Assembly: GCA_049964835.1 (NCBI GenBank)
Contig: JBMFWW010000002.1
Coordinates: 16,701 to 80,700, forward strand
DNA: 64,000 bases
Reading direction: 5' to 3'
Source: Candidatus Micrarchaeia archaeon
GTDB lineage: Archaea; Micrarchaeota; Micrarchaeia; Micrarchaeales; CABMGC01
Shown one piece after another: positions 2,507 through 51,912 of this stretch. The notes under the pieces are model-generated. The model saw only the letters and a list, made by a program, of their open reading frames with translations. It was not told the origin of the DNA and searched no databases. Both the position numbers and the translations under genes were made by a program. Position 1 is the stretch's first letter; each line of letters starts with the position of its first letter.

Positions 2507-4336
2507 TTATTTTATATAGGAGTTAATTTCTTCACCATCTATATTCAGCCTGTATTTTGTCATTATCTCTTTTAACAAAAGCTTCTTATCCGTTGTTTTG
2601 TAATTATTTATTAATTTTTCAAGTTCTTTACCCTGTATTCTTTCTAGTGACCTTTCTTTTATTATTTTGTCTACCTCAATAGGTTCTTTTGGCAACAAAG
2701 ATAAAATCTCACCTATAGCCGCTTTGGTTATTTTTTTATTAGCATAAAGTTCAAAGATTCTTGTTATTGAATCCTCATTAACTTTTTCTATATCTATACC
2801 ATTTCTTCTAAGTTCTTTTGTTTTTTCAAGCAAAATACTCGCTACAAGAAGTGGCTCTACTTCTACTTTTTTAATTATATTCCGATATAATTGTAGATCC
2901 TTTGACCAAAGCATTTGATCAGCAAGTTGTTTGTTTTTAATCTCTTCTATAAGTGTTTTCTTTGTTTTTTCAGTATCTACCTTTTCCGGTTTAAATTTTT
3001 CAGTTAATGTGTTTATATCTATTGGTAGTACATCAGTTTCAGGATACATTCTTGATTTACCTGGCATTGGCCTTAAAAATCGTGTGTTAAGTTTTTTGCT
3101 ATCAGCACCTCTAGTTTCGCTAGGCACTTCCTCCATAGCTATTCTTGCCCTTTCAAGTGCAAGCTTCATTCCGTATTTTGCTTTTTCTTCCTTCTCCGCT
3201 ATCAAAATAAATGCATCATCTTTTTCAACATATAATTTTTCTTTTAACATTCCTACTTCTTTGTCACTAATGTTATACTTTTCCATGTCTTCGTCACTAT
3301 GTATAATGCCCTTTATTCCAGAACTTTTTGCATAATCACTTATTTCGGTTCCTAACCTTAGATCATTGGCAAGTTCTATTCCAAGCATGTTGTTAAAGCC
3401 CTTAAGTTTTGCAGCTATAACAATTCCATTTTCTTTAAGTTGGTTTTTTATTAATGGGGAAGACGTATTTCTAAAGATCTCGGTTACAATTTCAGCATCT
3501 TCAACCTTCGCATTTTTCTCATTTAACGAATTTTTAATTTCTAAGAGTTTAAGTTGCCTTCCTATTTCTGCATCTATAATACTATCCATACTGTCTAAAT
3601 CTTGAAAGCCTTTTATTTCAATTCTTGCACCATTATTTATTGAGATATTGACATCCTGTCTTATCGAGCCTATTCCTCTTTGCGATGTTCCTGTTAATCT
3701 CAAAATTAATCCTATTTCCATCGATACTTTTTTAGCCTCTTCAGGCGTAGTTATAACTGGGTCTGTATCTATCTCTACTAAGGGTATACCTAGTCTATCT
3801 AGACTATACTCTACGTATTCCTCTGTGTTTTTTATTATGCCACCAGATTCCTCTTCAAGAAATATTGATGTTATCGGTATATTTTTTTCATTTACTTTAA
3901 TCGATCCTTCATATCCAATCATCATAGTTCTTTGGAATGCGCTTGGGTCGCTGCCATCTACAACTCCCTTTCTCATGACTATTATTTCATCAGGCATTTT
4001 ACAGTTGAAAGATGCGCATATGTTCATTCCTGATTTAATTGCATCTTCATTAGGTGCATGTGGAGGTTCTTCATCTATATCTACCATACATGTACTTTTA
4101 TCGAAGTGATCGTATAAAAAGAATCTATTTTTCCTGCTCTCAAATGTTGTTGCTTTATCTATTTTGCCTAACTCTCCCGCTACTGCTCTTTGTCTTCTTT
4201 CTATCCTTCCTGTATTTTTATCATCAAAAAAATTAGCAAAACATCTACAGAATAATTTATTTTTAGTCGATAATCTTTGGTGTATTTCAAGACCACATTT
4301 GAAACCTAATTTTTTATAATCATATTTTTCTTGCAT
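2507..4336 (-). CDS. gatE: Glu-tRNA(Gln) amidotransferase subunit E
   Basis: It has the GatB/GatE N-terminal motif GFKCGLEIHQRL. Its 609 aa length and its position directly downstream of gatD support the call. Confidence 0.9.
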   Translation of the reverse strand: MQEKYDYKKLGFKCGLEIHQRLSTKNKLFCRCFANFFDDKNTGRIERRQRAVAGELGKIDKATTFESRKNRFFLYDHFDKSTCMVDIDEEPPHAPNEDAIKSGMNICASFNCKMPDEIIVMRKGVVDGSDPSAFQRTMMIGYEGSIKVNEKNIPITSIFLEEESGGIIKNTEEYVEYSLDRLGIPLVEIDTDPVITTPEEAKKVSMEIGLILRLTGTSQRGIGSIRQDVNISINNGARIEIKGFQDLDSMDSIIDAEIGRQLKLLEIKNSLNEKNAKVEDAEIVTEIFRNTSSPLIKNQLKENGIVIAAKLKGFNNMLGIELANDLRLGTEISDYAKSSGIKGIIHSDEDMEKYNISDKEVGMLKEKLYVEKDDAFILIAEKEEKAKYGMKLALERARIAMEEVPSETRGADSKKLNTRFLRPMPGKSRMYPETDVLPIDINTLTEKFKPEKVDTEKTKKTLIEEIKNKQLADQMLWSKDLQLYRNIIKKVEVEPLLVASILLEKTKELRRNGIDIEKVNEDSITRIFELYANKKITKAAIGEILSLLPKEPIEVDKIIKERSLERIQGKELEKLINNYKTTDKKLLLKEIMTKYRLNIDGEEINSYIK

Positions 4337-4350
4337 TTTGTATCAACCAC

Positions 4351-5673
4351 TTATGATATGGTAGTCCTTTCTGTGATTTCCCCAACTAAGTTTTTAGCTA
4401 AAAGTTTTTCTGCATCTTTTTTGCTATAGTTTCCAAGTAAGAAACCTAATTTAACGTATGCAGTTTCAGCTAGCATATCTTCACAGTATATAGCTCCTGC
4501 CTCTTGTATTAATCTCCCATTTCTGTATACATTTCCGTTAACCCTACCATTTATGCATTGTGATGTCATACCTATTATCATTCCTGAAGAGACACCATCT
4601 TTTATTGCCTTTGTCCAGTTATACTCATTATGACTTGTAGAAACTGGGGCATGTCCCAATCCTGTACCTTGTAATATTAAACCTTTATAATTTTTTTTAC
4701 TATAATACTCTATAACTCCAGGGTCTGAGTTAGGATAACTTATTACCATAGCTATCTTACTTTCGTATCCTGTTTTTGCAACTACCTTTTCTTTATGGGC
4801 TTTAAATTCATTTTTATAATACTCTTCAACGTTGCCTTCATAATAAGCACGTGCAAGTATTCCTGTATTTATTGACTTAAACGCGTCTCTGCTTGAGGTA
4901 TGCATCTTTCTTGCCTTGCTTCCTAATATGAAATCGCAGTATTTATCAGAAGAGTTGCTATGCATGCATATGCCAACTTTGTTTATGTTGGTTTTTGAAG
5001 CTATTCGTGCAGAGCATATGAGATTCATGAATGCGTCGCTAGAACCTCTATCACTGCTTCGCTGTGCGCCAGTTAGTACAACTGGACTATTAAGATTTTG
5101 AAGCATGAAGCTTAGCGCTGCAGAAGTGTAGTGCATAGTGTCTGTACCGTGAGTTATGACTACCCCCTTAGCTCCTTCGTTTAATGCATCCGCAACATGT
5201 TTTGCCATAAGCTGCCATTCTTTATATGACATATCCTCGCTAGCTACGCTCATTAACTGTTCAACATTTATGTTTGCTATGTCACTAAGCTCTGGAACTT
5301 CATAAAGTAGCTCTTCAGGCTTAGTAAGCATGTAAACGCCTCCAGTAACATAATCGACTTTGCTACCTATAGTCCCACCAGTATATAGCAGAGTAATCTT
5401 TTCTAAATCTTTATTATTTTTAGATGTAGCTTTAGGAAAAGTAAAATTTTCTTGCGTTTTTGACTCTTTTTTATTTACTTCAATATCTTTTGAATATTTT
5501 ATACCTATATTATATCCATTATCAAGCTTAATTATAATTATACTGTCATCTCCAGTGTCCGGTCTTGGCATAAGTATTCCATTTAATTCATTGTTATTAT
5601 TCTTAATATGCAAAAGGTCTCCTACCTTTAGTTTCTTGTTTTTAAACAATGCTTCTAATTCCTCAGAATACAT
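4351..5673 (-). CDS. gatD: Glu-tRNA(Gln) amidotransferase subunit D (asparaginase-like)
   Basis: It has the asparaginase-type motifs YTGGTIGSKVDYVTGGV and THGTDTM. An N-terminal extension and adjacency to gatE fit GatD. Confidence 0.9.
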   Translation of the reverse strand: MYSEELEALFKNKKLKVGDLLHIKNNNNELNGILMPRPDTGDDSIIIIKLDNGYNIGIKYSKDIEVNKKESKTQENFTFPKATSKNNKDLEKITLLYTGGTIGSKVDYVTGGVYMLTKPEELLYEVPELSDIANINVEQLMSVASEDMSYKEWQLMAKHVADALNEGAKGVVITHGTDTMHYTSAALSFMLQNLNSPVVLTGAQRSSDRGSSDAFMNLICSARIASKTNINKVGICMHSNSSDKYCDFILGSKARKMHTSSRDAFKSINTGILARAYYEGNVEEYYKNEFKAHKEKVVAKTGYESKIAMVISYPNSDPGVIEYYSKKNYKGLILQGTGLGHAPVSTSHNEYNWTKAIKDGVSSGMIIGMTSQCINGRVNGNVYRNGRLIQEAGAIYCEDMLAETAYVKLGFLLGNYSKKDAEKLLAKNLVGEITERTTIS

Positions 5674-43375: not shown

Positions 43376-43491
43376 TGCCAAACGGTCATAGTAGCAGGGA
43401 AACGCCCGAACCCATTCCGAACTCGGAAGCTAAGCTTGCTAACGATATGAAATACTGCTGTAATAGTGGGAAAGCATATTGCTGTTTGGCA
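43376..43491 (+). rRNA. 5S ribosomal RNA (solitary)
   Basis: The terminal helix is TGCCAAAC...GTTTGGCA. The core GGTCATAGTAGCAGGGAAACGCCCGAACCCATTCCGAACTCGGAAGCTAAGC closely matches archaeal (Thermoplasma-type) 5S. No other rRNA gene is adjacent. Confidence 0.85.
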
Positions 43492-46327: not shown

Positions 46328-46712
46328 TGTCACTAAACAGGCAAAGCTTTGTCTTAAAAGATGTAATGATGGAGCTTAATATTCTAAAATCTACAGAGTA
46401 TCTTGAAGATATGAAAAGATTCGGAATAAATACTACTTCTACAATTACATTGGGCGTATCAGTTCCTAATCTTAGAAAACTTTCAAAAAGATAGGAACAA
46501 ATCACGCGTTAGCTACTCAATTATGGAATACAAAGGTTCATGAAGCAATGATACTTGCTGCATTTATTGACGATCCATTACTTGTCAGTGAAGAACAGAT
46601 GGAGCAATGGGTCAATGGTTTTTCATCTTGGGATATATGTGATGCCGTATTCGGAACTCTTTTTGATAAAACAAGGTTTGCTTATAAAATTCCTAAATTC
46701 CCAGAGTTTTAG
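46327..46712 (+). pseudogene. DNA alkylation repair (AlkD/PF08713-like HEAT-repeat) gene, frameshifted and 3'-truncated
   Basis: The sequence MSLNRQSFVLKDVMMELNILKSTEYLEDMKRFGINTTSTITLGVSVPNLRKLSKR stops at 46492-46494, right after an A5 run at 46485-46489. Shifting the frame by one nucleotide (consistent with a single-base deletion in the A5 run) continues the protein as IGTNHALATQLWNTKVHEAMILAAFIDDPLLVSEEQMEQWVNGFSSWDICDAVFGTLFDKT. This matches the family pattern FGI...GVS.P.LR.lAk.iG.nH.LA..LW...iHEa..lA. Only about half of the expected length is present, and it runs into a transposase fragment. Confidence 0.65.
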
Positions 46713-47076
46713 ACACTAGGATGCCTAATTTTTCTGAGATTTCCTGCTGTTCTTTGGTCAATTCAGATACCAGTACCTCCTTCTCATAAATTTTACACTT
46801 TAGATTCCTCAAACTTACCAATACCTCTTCCACTGTATAGTTTTTACCTAATTTCTTTTTTAATTGTATGAACGCAATTAATATCATAAACTGCATGAAA
46901 ATAAACCCACGCAACGCCTCTTCTGAATGTACACGTAATGGAAGTATACTGATATCGTCTTTTGAAAATCCAAATAGTATTTCTGTGATTTGCCTAACAT
47001 AATATGCAGGAACAACATCGTTTTTTGATAGTTCAAATGGAAAGTATTTATTTAGGACCTTTTGATTCAGATATGA
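46693..47076 (-). mobile_element. C-terminal fragment of a DDE transposase (IS4/IS1634-like), no intact element
   Basis: The reverse-strand frame is open from 47076: ...KVLNKYFPFELSKNDVVPAYYVRQITEILFGFSKDDISILPLRVHSEEALRGFIFMQFMILIAFIQLKKKLGKNYTVEEVLVSLRNLKCKIYEKEVLVSELTKEQQEISEKLGI. It resembles the C-terminal third of IS4/IS1634-type transposases. A stop codon lies upstream, there is no catalytic core, and I saw no inverted repeats. Confidence 0.5.
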
Positions 47077-47402
47077 TTATGGTAGAGTATGAAGATATCT
47101 TAGGAAAAGATAATGGAAACGATAGCAATTCTTCGGAAATAATTGTTCAACAACCGAATGTTGTCCCGCTAAATATAAAAAATAATCAAAGGAAAAAATA
47201 AACGCAAGAACTGGAAGCTATAGAAAATAAGAGTAAATATGAATAATTGTTCTTGGTATTTACAGTAAGCTATATAAACCTTTATTTGTATAATATACTT
47301 CAACGCTTTATATGCACGTTCACACTGCATATTTGTGTTAATATTTATTGCATACTCAGTTGTATGCTTTATTGTTTAATGTGAAAATTCCTATTTGGAA
47401 TT

Positions 47403-47436
47403 GGATGTAGTCTTGAGAGTGTAAAGAGAAGAACAA
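47403..47436 (+). other. 5' strand of the pre-16S rRNA processing stem
   Basis: GGATGTAGTCTTGAGA (47403-47418) is perfectly complementary to TCTCAAGACTACATCC (49039-49054). GAGAAGAACAA (47426-47436) pairs with TTGTCTTCTC (49021-49030). The internal unpaired segments are compatible with a bulge-helix-bulge site. Confidence 0.7.
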
Positions 47437-47479
47437 CGCAATTGCAATTAATAAAATCTTGCAGACAAACAAACCAAAA

Positions 47480-48966
47480 ATTCCAGTCGATGCTGCTGGA
47501 GGACACTGCTATCAGATTTCGACAGCCATGCAAGTCAACATTCTCACTTGAGAGTGTGGCGTACGGCTCAGTAACGCGTGGTCAATCTACCGTAGAGAAG
47601 GGCATAACCTTGGGAAACTGAGGCTAATATCATATAGTTTAAGACACCTGGAAGGAGTTTTAAACTAAAGGGTTGCGAATTGGAGCATTACCGCTCTACG
47701 ATGAGACTGCGTCGGATCAGGCAGATGGCGGGGTAACGGCCCACCATACCTTTGACCCGTAGGGGATATGTGAGTATGAGCCCCGAGAAGGGCACTGAGA
47801 CAAGGGCCCTAGCGCTACGGCGTGCAGCAGGCGCGCAAACTCCACAATGCGCGAAAGCGTGATGGGGGGAGTCTGAGTGGTAGGTTTTTAACTTACCTTT
47901 TGCCAAGTTTAGCAAGCTTGGAGAATAAGTGCTGGGTAAGACCGGTGGCAGCCGCCACGGTAATACCGGCGGCACGAGTGGTGTTCACTATTATTGGGCT
48001 TAAAGCGTCCGTAGCTGGCTGAAACAGTCTTATGTGAAATATAGGTGCTTAACATCTATACGTGCATAAGATACCTTTCGGCTAGGGAGTGGGAGAGGTC
48101 AAGAGTACTTATGGGGTAGGGGTTAAATCCTGTAATCCTATAAGGACTACCTGTGGCGAAGGCGCTTGACCAGAACACATCCGACAGTGAGTGACGAAGG
48201 CTAGGAGAACGAATCGGATTAGATACCCGAGTAGCCCTAGCAGTAAATTATGCAGACATTGGTGTTGCATTTATCTTGAATAAGTGCAGTACCGTAGGAA
48301 AACTGTTAAGTCTGCCGCCTGGGGAGTACGGCCGCAAGGTTGAAACTTAAAGCAATTGGCGGGGGAGCACACAAGGGGTGGATGCTACGGTTTAATTGAA
48401 TTCAACGTCGGAAATATCACCTGGAGCGACGGCAGTGTGAAGGCCAGACTAAAGATCTTGCCTGACAAGCCGAGAGGTGTTGCATGGCGATCGTCAGTTC
48501 GTGGTGTGAACTATCCGGTTAAGTCCGGTAACGAACGAGATCCTCACTAACAGTTGCAACTAATACAGTTGTGTATTGGGCACTCTGTTAGTACCGCCTG
48601 CGTTTAAGCAGGAGGAAGGAGAGGGCCACGGTACGTCAGTATAGCCCGAACCTCCAGGGCTACACGCGGCATACAAAGGTTGGTACAATGGGCTGCCACT
48701 CAGAAATGAGGAGCTAATCCCCTAAAACCAATCTAAGTTCGGATTGAGGGTTGAAACTCACCCTCATGAAGTTGGAATCCCTAGTAATCGCTTGTCACTA
48801 TCGAGCGGTGAATATGTCCCCGCTCCTTGCACACACCGCCTACCAAGTCATCCAAGTGAGGTCTTAGTGATACAGCATCGTAATAGATACTGTTGAACTA
48901 AGGTTTCGTGAGGGGGGCTAAGGTATAACAAGGTATCCGTAGGGGAACCTGCGGATAGATCACCTC
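47480..48966 (+). rRNA. 16S ribosomal RNA (solitary, no linked 23S or spacer tRNA)
   Basis: The 5' end ATTCCAGTCGATGCTGCTGGAGGACACTGCTATCAG compares with the archaeal ATTCCGGTTGATCCTGCCGGAGG. The 530-loop GTGGCAGCCGCCACGGTAATAC is present. The 3' end is GTAGGGGAACCTGCGGATAGATCACCTC. The length is about 1487 nt. Confidence 0.95.
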
Positions 48967-49020
48967 GAAACTTTTTAAGAAGGTTTCAAGCTACTTAATA
49001 TTTAGTGTGCGTAAAATTAG

Positions 49021-49054
49021 TTGTCTTCTCGCACTATTTCTCAAGACTACATCC
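49021..49054 (+). other. 3' strand of the pre-16S rRNA processing stem
   Basis: See feature 47403-47436. The sequence is TTGTCTTCTC GCACTATT TCTCAAGACTACATCC. Confidence 0.7.
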
Positions 49055-49059
49055 TTTTT
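49055..49059 (+). terminator. oligo-T tract after the 16S processing stem
   Basis: TTTTT lies directly after the stem. Confidence 0.3.
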
Positions 49060-50019: not shown

Positions 50020-51912
50020 ATGCCATTAAATAATAAAAACACTGCAAAAAATAGGTTCAAAACTCTTATAAAAAACGTACTTAAGGATGAAATAAAACTA
50101 GAAGATTTGGATATAGATAGAAGCATATGCCTTGTTTTAAATCAGGATTGGGATATCTCTTCATCTATAGCATTAAGAATTGCAAAAATTATGAAAAAAA
50201 ATCCAAAAGAGTTAGCAGAAAGTATTACTAGTAAACTATCAAAGATAGAAAGTACAGAAAATCCAAAAACCACCTTTTTTTCTGAGTTTTTTGCAATGAA
50301 CGGTTATATAAATGCAAAACTAAATATTAAAAATTTCTCAAAATCTGTACTTGAAGAGGTACTCTCTTTAGAAGAAAAGTATGGTCATAATGAAGTTGGT
50401 AAAGGCAAAGTTGCAATAATCGAATATCCTAGTGTAAATCCAAACAAACCCTGGCATGTAGGGCATATTAGGAACCCTCTTCTCGGAGATTCAATTTCAA
50501 GAATTATGTCTTTTTCTTCATATAAAGTACTACGTACTGATTATATCGAAGATTTAGGTTTGCAGATGGCAGAGATTCTCTGGGGCAGCAAAAATTTAGA
50601 GTGGAATGAGAATGGTAAGAAGTATGACCAGTTCCTCGGAGAAAAATATGTAGAAATAAATAAACATATAGAAAAGGAAAATGTGAAAAACGAAATATCT
50701 GTTTTGTTAAAAAATATGGAAGACGTTTCAAGTGACGATGCAATTAAAATCAGAGAAATATCAGAAAAGAGTGTAAAGGCACAGTATCAAACAAGTTTTT
50801 CGTATGGCGTATATCATGATTTACTTATCTGGGAAAGTGATATACTAAGAGAAAAGCTTCTAGAAAAGTCATTAGATCTTCTTAAAAAGAATAACCTGAT
50901 TAATATTGAAAAAGAAGGTAAGCTATCTGGCTGCACCGTTTTAAAGACCGATCTATCTGGTAAAACAGAAGAAAAAAACAAGAAGGTATTACTAAGAAGC
51001 AATGGCGTTCCAACGTATCTTGCAAAAGATATTGCATTTCATATGTGGAAGTTAGGCATAATAAAAATACAGTTCAATGTACATAACTTTATTGGACAGC
51101 CCGATGGTACTTTCGCTAAAACAACTAATAAAACAGGCGATAGTTTAGATTTTAATGGTGCTGATATCGCAATAAATGTAATAGGTTCAGCCCAAAATGA
51201 ACCACAAATTATACTAAAAAATGTTTTTAAATTACTTGATGGAAAAAAATCCAATTCTCTTATACATTTATCTTATGGAGAAGTAAGTTTGAAAGAAGGC
51301 AAGATAAGTGGAAGAAGTGGAAAATGGCTCGGTGAAGATAGAAATTACACTGCAGATGATTTGTTAAAGTTTACAGTAAATAAAGTTCGAGAAGTAATAT
51401 TATCTGGAGAAAAAATATCAAAAGAAATAGATATAGAAAAGGTTTCAAAAAGCATTGCACTGTCTGCAATAAAATTTGATTTGTTAAGAATAGATCCTAT
51501 AAAGAAAATAGTATTTGATTGGGATAGAGCGCTTGATTTAAATTCAAATAGCGGACCTTACTGTGTTTACATGTATGCTAGATGTTGTAGGATACTTGAA
51601 AAATCTTCTATAACTATTAAATTAGATGATATAAATCTGAATTATATAGAAAGAGATTTTGGTTTTGAACTATTAAAATTGATATCTAAATGTAATGAGA
51701 TAGTAGAAAAAGCACTTACTGAGTATAAACCAAATATAATAACTGATTATTTAATAGATTTATCCCAATTATTCGGTAAGTTTTATGAGCATAATAATGT
51801 ACTTAAATCTGGAGATGCGATGGTTGCGCGTTTAGCAATAGTCAATGCGACAAAGCAAACATTATATAACATGCTTATGCTTTTAGGTATAGAACCACTA
51901 TCTTCTATGTAA
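50020..51912 (+). CDS. argS: arginyl-tRNA synthetase
   Basis: It has the class I HIGH-type motif PNKPWHVGHIRNPLLGD and a DALR anticodon-binding C-terminus. It ends in ...LLGIEPLSSM, as ArgRS proteins typically do. Confidence 0.9.
   Translation: MPLNNKNTAKNRFKTLIKNVLKDEIKLEDLDIDRSICLVLNQDWDISSSIALRIAKIMKKNPKELAESITSKLSKIESTENPKTTFFSEFFAMNGYINAKLNIKNFSKSVLEEVLSLEEKYGHNEVGKGKVAIIEYPSVNPNKPWHVGHIRNPLLGDSISRIMSFSSYKVLRTDYIEDLGLQMAEILWGSKNLEWNENGKKYDQFLGEKYVEINKHIEKENVKNEISVLLKNMEDVSSDDAIKIREISEKSVKAQYQTSFSYGVYHDLLIWESDILREKLLEKSLDLLKKNNLINIEKEGKLSGCTVLKTDLSGKTEEKNKKVLLRSNGVPTYLAKDIAFHMWKLGIIKIQFNVHNFIGQPDGTFAKTTNKTGDSLDFNGADIAINVIGSAQNEPQIILKNVFKLLDGKKSNSLIHLSYGEVSLKEGKISGRSGKWLGEDRNYTADDLLKFTVNKVREVILSGEKISKEIDIEKVSKSIALSAIKFDLLRIDPIKKIVFDWDRALDLNSNSGPYCVYMYARCCRILEKSSITIKLDDINLNYIERDFGFELLKLISKCNEIVEKALTEYKPNIITDYLIDLSQLFGKFYEHNNVLKSGDAMVARLAIVNATKQTLYNMLMLLGIEPLSSM

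Follow-up and report, generated by a model that had tools for sequence, protein, structure and literature searches.

The 16S ribosomal RNA (rRNA) gene in a 64,000-nucleotide stretch of Candidatus Micrarchaeia archaeon DNA (assembly GCA_049964835.1, contig JBMFWW010000002.1, positions 16,701 to 80,700; the whole stretch is called the window below) carries three altered base pairs at the top of helix 44, in the decoding centre. Judging by alignment with relatives, these three paired swaps are real, leave the helix intact and are a common, still-changing 16S trait of the Micrarchaeota (DPANN of the ARMAN, or archaeal Richmond Mine acidophilic nanoorganism, type), not a property specific to this genome. 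Comparison across the lineage shows that the state arose there by stepwise compensatory substitution, and near-neutral evolution of this kind in an AT-rich, reduced-genome symbiont lineage is the best reading, one that we consider likely.

Three base pairs at the top of helix 44

The gene and the parts of helix 44 discussed here are located in the window as follows.

47480..48968, plus strand: complete, intron-less archaeal 16S rRNA gene of a Candidatus Micrarchaeia metagenome-assembled genome (Rfam RF01959, 1389.6 bits)
48836..48845, plus strand: 5′ strand of the helix-44 top (E. coli 1399-1408), CCGCCUACCA (sequence, covariance-model alignment)
48846..48919, plus strand: rest of helix 44 (1409-1491), with A1409-U1491 and not C-G as its first pair (covariance-model alignment)
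48920..48933, plus strand: 3′ strand of the helix-44 top (E. coli 1492-1505), AAGGUAUAACAAGG (sequence, covariance-model alignment, covariation counts)

The gene is a full-length match to the Rfam model SSU_rRNA_archaea, covering positions 1-1478 of 1478 with a score far above the gathering score of 50. Read directly from the window, 48836-48845 is CCGCCTACCA and 48920-48933 is AAGGTATAACAAGG, with U1404, A1405 and C1406 at 48841, 48842 and 48843, and G1495, U1496 and A1497 at 48923, 48924 and 48925. The 3′ domain was searched again on its own with the Rfam model to view the alignment. The model consensus opposite the helix-44 bases was CCGcCCGUCA and AAGUCGUAaCAAGG, with a posterior probability of '*' throughout, and helices 44 and 45 pair as the model expects, no mark for a non-standard pair ('v') appearing at 1399-1504, 1401-1501, 1404-1497, 1405-1496 or 1407-1494. 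Positions 1406 and 1495, which are unpaired in the model, are C and G in the window.

The near-universal arrangement at the top of helix 44 is C-G, G-C, U.U, C-G. The window has U1404-A1497, A1405-U1496 and, replacing U.U, C1406-G1495, followed by the conserved C1407-G1494, and these probably form one continuous four-pair Watson-Crick stack. Compared with the canonical decoding site (RF01959; E. coli 1399-1410/1490-1504), the helix register is the same, helix 45 and the 3′ tail match on the flank, and C1400-C1403, C1407-G1494, A1408, A1492, A1493 and U1498 are unchanged. The differences are C1404-G1497 to U-A, G1405-C1496 to A-U, U1406.U1495 to C-G and, one step further down, C1409-G1491 to A-U.

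The original prediction, made from the letters of the window, had mapped the changes to 1404-1497, 1405-1496 and 1406/1495 of E. coli and had described A1408, A1492, A1493 and U1498 as retained. The structure-aware Rfam alignment does not place the bases differently, so that the E. coli numbering holds, and the four retained bases are seen in it. The prediction had also called the changes compensatory and the rRNA functional rather than a pseudogene. Both statements agree with our results: pairing is kept at all three positions, the covariation is clade-wide, and the full-length gene is flanked by a processing stem (see below).

Distribution among genomes and metagenomes

One genome per species was scanned for any 16S with a base other than G at 1405 in conserved context. 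The scan returned 104 loci among 185,579 species-representative genomes (a total that counts genomes with and without an assembled 16S), and non-G1405 is clearly rare among species representatives. Writing each state as 1404-1406/1495-1497, with CGU/UCG as the canonical form and UAC/GUA as the form of the window, 72 of the 104 loci were CAU/UUG, in which 1405-1496 alone has changed, to A-U. The exact window state accounted for 20, and the remainder were UAU/UUA (5), CAC/GUG (1, Iainarchaeum), CUU/UAG (1) and uncompensated forms (5); 99/104 were thus compensated. The five loci with an uncompensated 1405-1496 may be errors or pseudogenes.

Bacterial non-G1405 loci belong mostly to symbionts or reduced genomes (Cardinium and other Amoebophilaceae, Amesbacteria, Dojkabacteria, Saccharibacteria and sponge symbionts). 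CAU/UUG recurs in these unrelated lineages and in several DPANN groups, the sponge symbionts including Porisulfidus and AqS2. This variant, also found in other members of the Candidate Phyla Radiation, has A1405-U1496 as in the window, but its C1404-G1497 and U1406.U1495 remain canonical.

All 20 UAC/GUA loci are Micrarchaeota by label or by 16S. Sixteen are labelled Micrarchaeota or Micrarchaeia and four 'Marsarchaeota'; three of the latter ('Candidatus Marsarchaeota' L074, L079 and L093) fall inside the Micrarchaeota 16S clade, and the fourth (L031) is partial and ~84% identical to the window. The Micrarchaeota-type 16S of these four metagenome-assembled genomes suggests mislabelling or mixed bins. 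Since the UAC/GUA 16S sequences are 84-96% identical to that of the window, the state spans roughly family-to-order depth. One of the 20 loci belongs to the complete genome of Ca. Micrarchaeum sp. A_DKE (L052, NZ_CP060530), an archaeon grown in co-culture (PMC8975820), and UAC/GUA sequences are therefore already public, with a cultivated representative among them.

A_DKE and the 19 other representatives have the UAC/GUA top, helix 45, G18-C917, G518 and A527 as in the window. They differ from it in overall identity, and A_DKE and several others also in 16S insertions of ~500-850 nt. Insertions of this size are found in many clade relatives after window-16S positions ~866, 1049 and 1321 (at 4083-4594 in A_DKE, and in L036, L076, L132, L123, L190 and others) and are probably rRNA introns; the window 16S has none of them.

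One helix-45 sequence is common to all 20 UAC/GUA loci and to a UAU/UUA Micrarchaeia locus (L022). A metagenome-contig scan anchored on that sequence, with 1495-1497 left free, yielded at least 120 loci, and those that could be read completely were CGU/UCG (at least 71), UGC/GCA (at least 17), UGU/UCA (at least 7), UAC/GUA (at least 3, plus at least 2 partial) and, more rarely, CGC/GCG (at least 2) and CGU/UUG (at least 1). Among the matches listed, no long 16S sequence with 83% or more identity to the window keeps the canonical helix-44 top; all are UAC/GUA, UGC/GCA, UGU/UCA or CGC/GCG, and full-length canonical CGU/UCG begins at ~80% identity or below. The nearest full-length metagenomic relatives listed (L179 and L149, ~90%) are UGC/GCA and not UAC/GUA. 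The sister states UGC/GCA, UGU/UCA and CGC/GCG lie within the clade of the window, have its signature positions in common and are compensated at all pairs; they differ in that G1405-C1496 is kept or one of the other two swaps is missing.

One metagenomic contig (L137, Ga0082335_1013249, 7619 bp) holds three 16S 3′ ends, with the helix-45 pattern at 40-82, 2715-2757 and 4482-4524 on the minus strand. Its copies carry the canonical helix-44 top, and it may represent a tandem repeat or a mis-assembly.

The triple change had been presented as noteworthy, with the proviso that it would lose interest if the combination proved common in a well-described archaeal clade. This is what we found: the exact combination is present in 20 Micrarchaeota species representatives, A_DKE included, and sister variants fill the rest of the clade, so that a status special to this window is not supported. 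The prediction had noted neither this variation within the clade nor the further core changes that accompany the derived top (G18-C917, G518 and A527).

The six-base state of the window recurs in at least 25 independent assemblies, including one complete genome, and this recurrence rules out an assembly or sequencing error without recourse to read coverage. It is also extremely improbable that the feature is an artefact in the broader sense, whether through chimerism, misplaced alignment, errors in sequencing or assembly, or decay of the rRNA gene into a pseudogene, and nothing was found that speaks for this. Beyond the recurrence, the covariance model aligns the bases without ambiguity, the full-length gene scores high and has a processing stem on its flanks, and Watson-Crick pairing survives all three changes. 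Recurrence and covariation led us to reject misalignment, pseudogene and assembly error alike, and the gene was not classed as a pseudogene or an artefact.

Probable compensatory turnover and its alternatives

A neighbour-joining (NJ) tree was built from a MAFFT alignment of 81 near-complete 16S sequences from which insertions and the six helix-44 columns had been taken out. The window, A_DKE and every derived state fell into a single clade of 28 sequences, with canonical sequences all around it. This places the window inside the Micrarchaeota-type 16S clade, as delimited by A_DKE and the labelled metagenome-assembled genomes, independently of the six columns. When 27 clade sequences (L125 omitted) and 7 outgroups were bootstrapped with 200 replicates, the derived clade was monophyletic in 200/200 and UAC/GUA in 0/200. 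The window grouped with L096, L093, L179 and L149, the last two of which are UGC/GCA, in 200/200 bootstraps, and with L096 and L093 in 92% of replicates. Within the clade, UAC/GUA was counted 14 times, UGC/GCA 9-10 times, UGU/UCA 3 times and CGC/GCG once. Parsimony required 4-7 changes (mode 5) at the 1405-1496 pair, a number that is an estimate from a 16S-only NJ tree. As UAC/GUA is never monophyletic and the pair has changed about 4-7 times, the helix-44 top appears to be still turning over: on this tree it is the subject of ongoing compensatory turnover and no frozen oddity.

Covariation was examined over 46 distinct helix-44-top haplotypes from 206 sequences, a set that is variant-enriched by design and tests pairing, not frequency. 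The 1404-1497 pair was CG in 30 and UA in 16 and was never unpaired, and 1406-1495 was C-G in 11 and U.U in 35; neither occurred in a half-changed form. At 1405-1496 we counted AU 27, GC 12, GU 1, UA 1 and other 5. The observed covariation score was reached by 0/500 shuffles, and sliding the partner strand by 1-3 columns gave 19-37% pairing vs 90% in the true register.

Nearest-neighbour energies of the local duplex were -3.0 kcal/mol for the canonical top, -8.1 kcal/mol for UGC/GCA and -6.1 kcal/mol for UAC/GUA. A G.U intermediate came to -6.1 kcal/mol on the C-G background, stronger than the canonical top, and to +0.1 kcal/mol on the U.U background. The energies on the C1406-G1495 background would mean that the weakening steps favoured by AT-biased mutation are buffered.

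By this comparison the route was stepwise. The clade holds the series UGU/UCA, CGC/GCG, UGC/GCA, UAC/GUA, of which the window has the most derived form. On the tree, the 1405-1496 pair has toggled several times between G-C and A-U, probably via a G.U intermediate (the form seen in one of the 46 haplotypes), and the new C1406-G1495 pair would give the added stability that buffers this step. AT-biased mutation and weak selection in a small-population, host-dependent lineage are the likely drivers; outside the Micrarchaeota, too, non-G1405 is concentrated in symbionts and reduced genomes, namely the bacterial groups listed above and other DPANN. The bases that read the codon-anticodon helix or the P-site mRNA (C1400-C1403, A1408, A1492, A1493, G1494 and U1498) are unchanged, and the known ligand contacts at 1494-1497 go to the backbone, so that decoding would be expected to remain intact after swaps that keep the shape of the helix. 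Altered binding of aminoglycosides or hygromycin B, if any, would be a by-product.

Work on engineered mutants concerns the same positions (U1406C/U1495G in M. smegmatis; C1404, G1405, C1496 and G1497 in E. coli). Disruption of C1404:G1497 impairs tRNA binding in E. coli mutants (Cunningham et al. 1993, cited in PMC3900107), and M. smegmatis U1406C/U1495G is viable, with an almost unchanged minimal inhibitory concentration (MIC) (Hobbie et al., summarised in PMC3140962). In these data the 1404:1497 pair must form and a C-G at 1406-1495 is viable. The mutants carry single or double changes in bacteria, whereas the window has three pairs changed together in a natural archaeal lineage. According to PMC9014874, EF-G domain IV reaches 1494-1496 through the backbone only, and factors in general make contacts that do not depend on base identity.

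Remodelling of the aminoglycoside pocket, which the original prediction had stated, is plausible, as drugs contact G1405, U1406 and U1495. One could argue that this was what selection acted on, the drug target having changed adaptively so that natural 2-deoxystreptamine aminoglycosides or hygromycin B, with contacts at G1405, U1406, U1495, C1496 and 1491, bind less well. The known binding pocket takes in all six changed bases and U1491, hygromycin B contacts 1404-1406 and 1495-1498, and G1405 is the site of m7G resistance methylation. Moreover, G1491U and U1495 mutations raise the paromomycin MIC of M. smegmatis 128- to 512-fold (PMC3140962). However, 1405-1496 has switched in both directions within the clade, a pattern more readily explained by drift than by directional selection, and G1405A/C1496U is common in intracellular symbionts such as Cardinium. 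A1409-U1491 is found in all DPANN sequences sampled, including those with canonical helix-44 tops (78/78 archaeal sequences with data at 1409/1491 in our position table). We therefore regard selection by drugs as quite improbable.

Acquired aminoglycoside resistance by target modification or mutation was tried as a separate classification and rejected. The target-modification enzymes form m7G1405 (ArmA/Rmt) or m1A1408 (NpmA), and with A at 1405 m7G1405 cannot form.

The clade also has changes elsewhere in the core of the 16S, at the following places in the window.

47491..47493, plus strand: 5′ strand of the central pseudoknot, U17 G18 C19 (G18 = 47492; position table)
47945..47963, plus strand: 530 loop, GUGGCAGCCGCCACGGUAA, with C518 changed to G at 47948 and G527 to A at 47957 (covariance-model alignment, position table)
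48352..48354, plus strand: 3′ strand of the central pseudoknot, G916 C917 A918 (C917 = 48353; position table)

The middle pair of the pseudoknot is flipped and compensated, G18-C917 vs the usual C18-G917. Clade members with data have UGC paired with GCA and nearly all other sequences UCC/GGA; the exception is L199, with ACA at 916-918 and no data for 17-19. The flip is absent from nearly all non-clade sequences compared, L178 having a different variant, and in this sample G18-C917 itself is exclusive to the clade. G518 and A527 are present in all clade members with data, and the covariance model flags C522.A527 as a non-standard pair; in E. coli, G527 is the m7G site. At the 3′ tail (48958-48971) the sequence is GAUCACCUCGAA. 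Like the window, most clade members have only CCUC of the anti-Shine-Dalgarno CCUCC, with 3′ ends that are CACCUC(G/A)A, while neighbouring canonical lineages keep CCUCC. The resulting signature (G18-C917, G518, A527, derived 1404-1406/1495-1497 and helix 45 UAUCCG...CGGAUA) is found in the window and, apart from the ACA of L199, in every clade member with data. None of the 51 archaeal non-clade sequences in the position table has G18-C917, G518 and A527 together with a derived helix-44 top.

Such a combination is what would be expected if the helix-44 top, the 530 loop, the pseudoknot and the shortened anti-Shine-Dalgarno tail had co-evolved with a changed partner, for which 23S H69, an initiation factor, uS12 or a lost modification at C1404 or G527 are candidates. 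Positions 1494-1496 take part in bridge B2a. They are also EF-G contact sites (PMC9014874). Yet any synapomorphies of a fast-evolving lineage would be expected to occur together on one branch, and G518 and A527 each occur singly in a few other DPANN groups with canonical helix 44. Regarding the partners, the 23S H69 region was found only in non-clade loci among all the 16S loci collected for comparison, because the rRNA genes are unlinked in the clade, and no uS12 (PNSA loop) was found in the 64-kb window; the clade loci likewise contain neither 23S nor uS12. We consider such coordinated remodelling unlikely, and there is only a small chance that the decoding centre was remodelled as one unit by changes that alter decoding, initiation or translocation or that give intrinsic insensitivity to helix-44 drugs. 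If it was, co-evolution with 23S H69 or an initiation factor, or loss of a modification enzyme, would be expected, and the clade would be a natural counter-example to several of 140 'absolutely invariant' nucleotides.

Near-neutral, stepwise compensatory evolution is the account we favour, and several points weigh against it. Neutrality is inferred and is not a measured quantity, and the fact that G18-C917, G518 and A527 are fixed in the clade too leaves room for coordinated functional retuning. The tree was built by NJ from 16S alone, aligned with MAFFT, and recombination or gene conversion could mimic repeated switching. Sampling is biased, as the genome scan catches non-G1405 only and the metagenome scan needs one helix-45 sequence and gives lower bounds for its loci. 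In the nearest-neighbour model, U.U counts as a 1x1 loop and the tertiary and Mg2+ context is left out, and 23S H69, the bridge B2a partner, lies outside the data compared, as do the relevant proteins.

Gene surroundings and meaning of the altered positions

Three further features surround the 16S gene.

47403..47436, plus strand: 5′ arm of the pre-16S processing stem, with a bulge, a 4-bp helix and a second bulge (inverted repeat, cofold)
49020..49056, plus strand: 3′ arm of the pre-16S processing stem (inverted repeat, cofold)
50020-51912: ArgRS, 100% identical to an NCBI 'Candidatus Micrarchaeia archaeon' protein, with Micrarchaeota proteins as the next relatives

An inverted repeat (47384-47418/49039-49073) brackets the gene, and cofolding of both flanks gave one long continuous stem (-59.8 kcal/mol). 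The predicted fold includes a bulge-helix-bulge-like element (bulge AAA, 4-bp GUGU:GCAC, bulge UAUU), and such a bulge, 4-bp helix and bulge in the processing stem is the expectation for archaeal pre-rRNA. A scan for sigma-70 promoters and terminators near the 16S returned fewer sites than shuffles, with a model that is uninformative for an archaeon. What the window holds is probably the ordinary, expressed 16S rRNA gene of a member of the Micrarchaeota.

The GC content along the window is 27-39%, for a genome GC of ~32%. In an Rfam scan of the 64-kb window, a 5S gene was found at 43378-43490, ~4 kb upstream of the solitary 16S, and no large-subunit (23S) match was found anywhere; the rRNA genes are thus unlinked, with 5S apart from 16S and no 23S in the window. 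The ~1.1 kb upstream of the 16S (46328-47479) contains no open reading frame of at least 80 aa. When ArgRS, an NMD3-like protein, HtpX and LemA were searched against the 16S loci of the relatives, HtpX and LemA of the window were shared only by L096, which indicates that gene order is not conserved among relatives.

The altered positions are described in the literature as universal. In PMC9014874, 140 nucleotides are reported as invariant in 1961 species, 97 of them archaea, and 1494, 1495 and 1496 are named as universally conserved in this alignment; C1404 and G1497 are likewise termed universally conserved in PMC3900107. In our genome scan, exceptions at 1495 and/or 1496 were the Micrarchaeota and 84 other species. 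No paper describing the helix-44 state of Micrarchaeota was found in the library searched, in which an ARMAN/1492R match concerned Cuniculiplasmataceae. The change had been called noteworthy for the conservation of the segment, and this stands insofar as it breaks positions that the literature calls universal; for its clade, it is ordinary.

The changes presumably also affect detection. The changes at the top of helix 44 coincide with the 3′ end of primer 1492R and with the site of 1392R, and primer 515F covers G518/A527; with changes at these primer sites, amplicon surveys likely count too few Micrarchaeota of this kind. For DPANN as a whole, mismatches to primers have been reported in general terms (PMC8407392).

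What remains of interest lies at the level of the clade, in a natural compensated series and in further decoding-core changes at 'universal' positions. The series from CGU/UCG through UGU/UCA or CGC/GCG and UGC/GCA to UAC/GUA, with its repeated G-C/A-U switching, offers a clean test case for compensatory crossing of fitness valleys in a functional core. This archaeal clade and about 80 other species show that several 'universal' positions tolerate change if pairing is kept, which points to conservation for helix geometry and backbone position, not for base identity.

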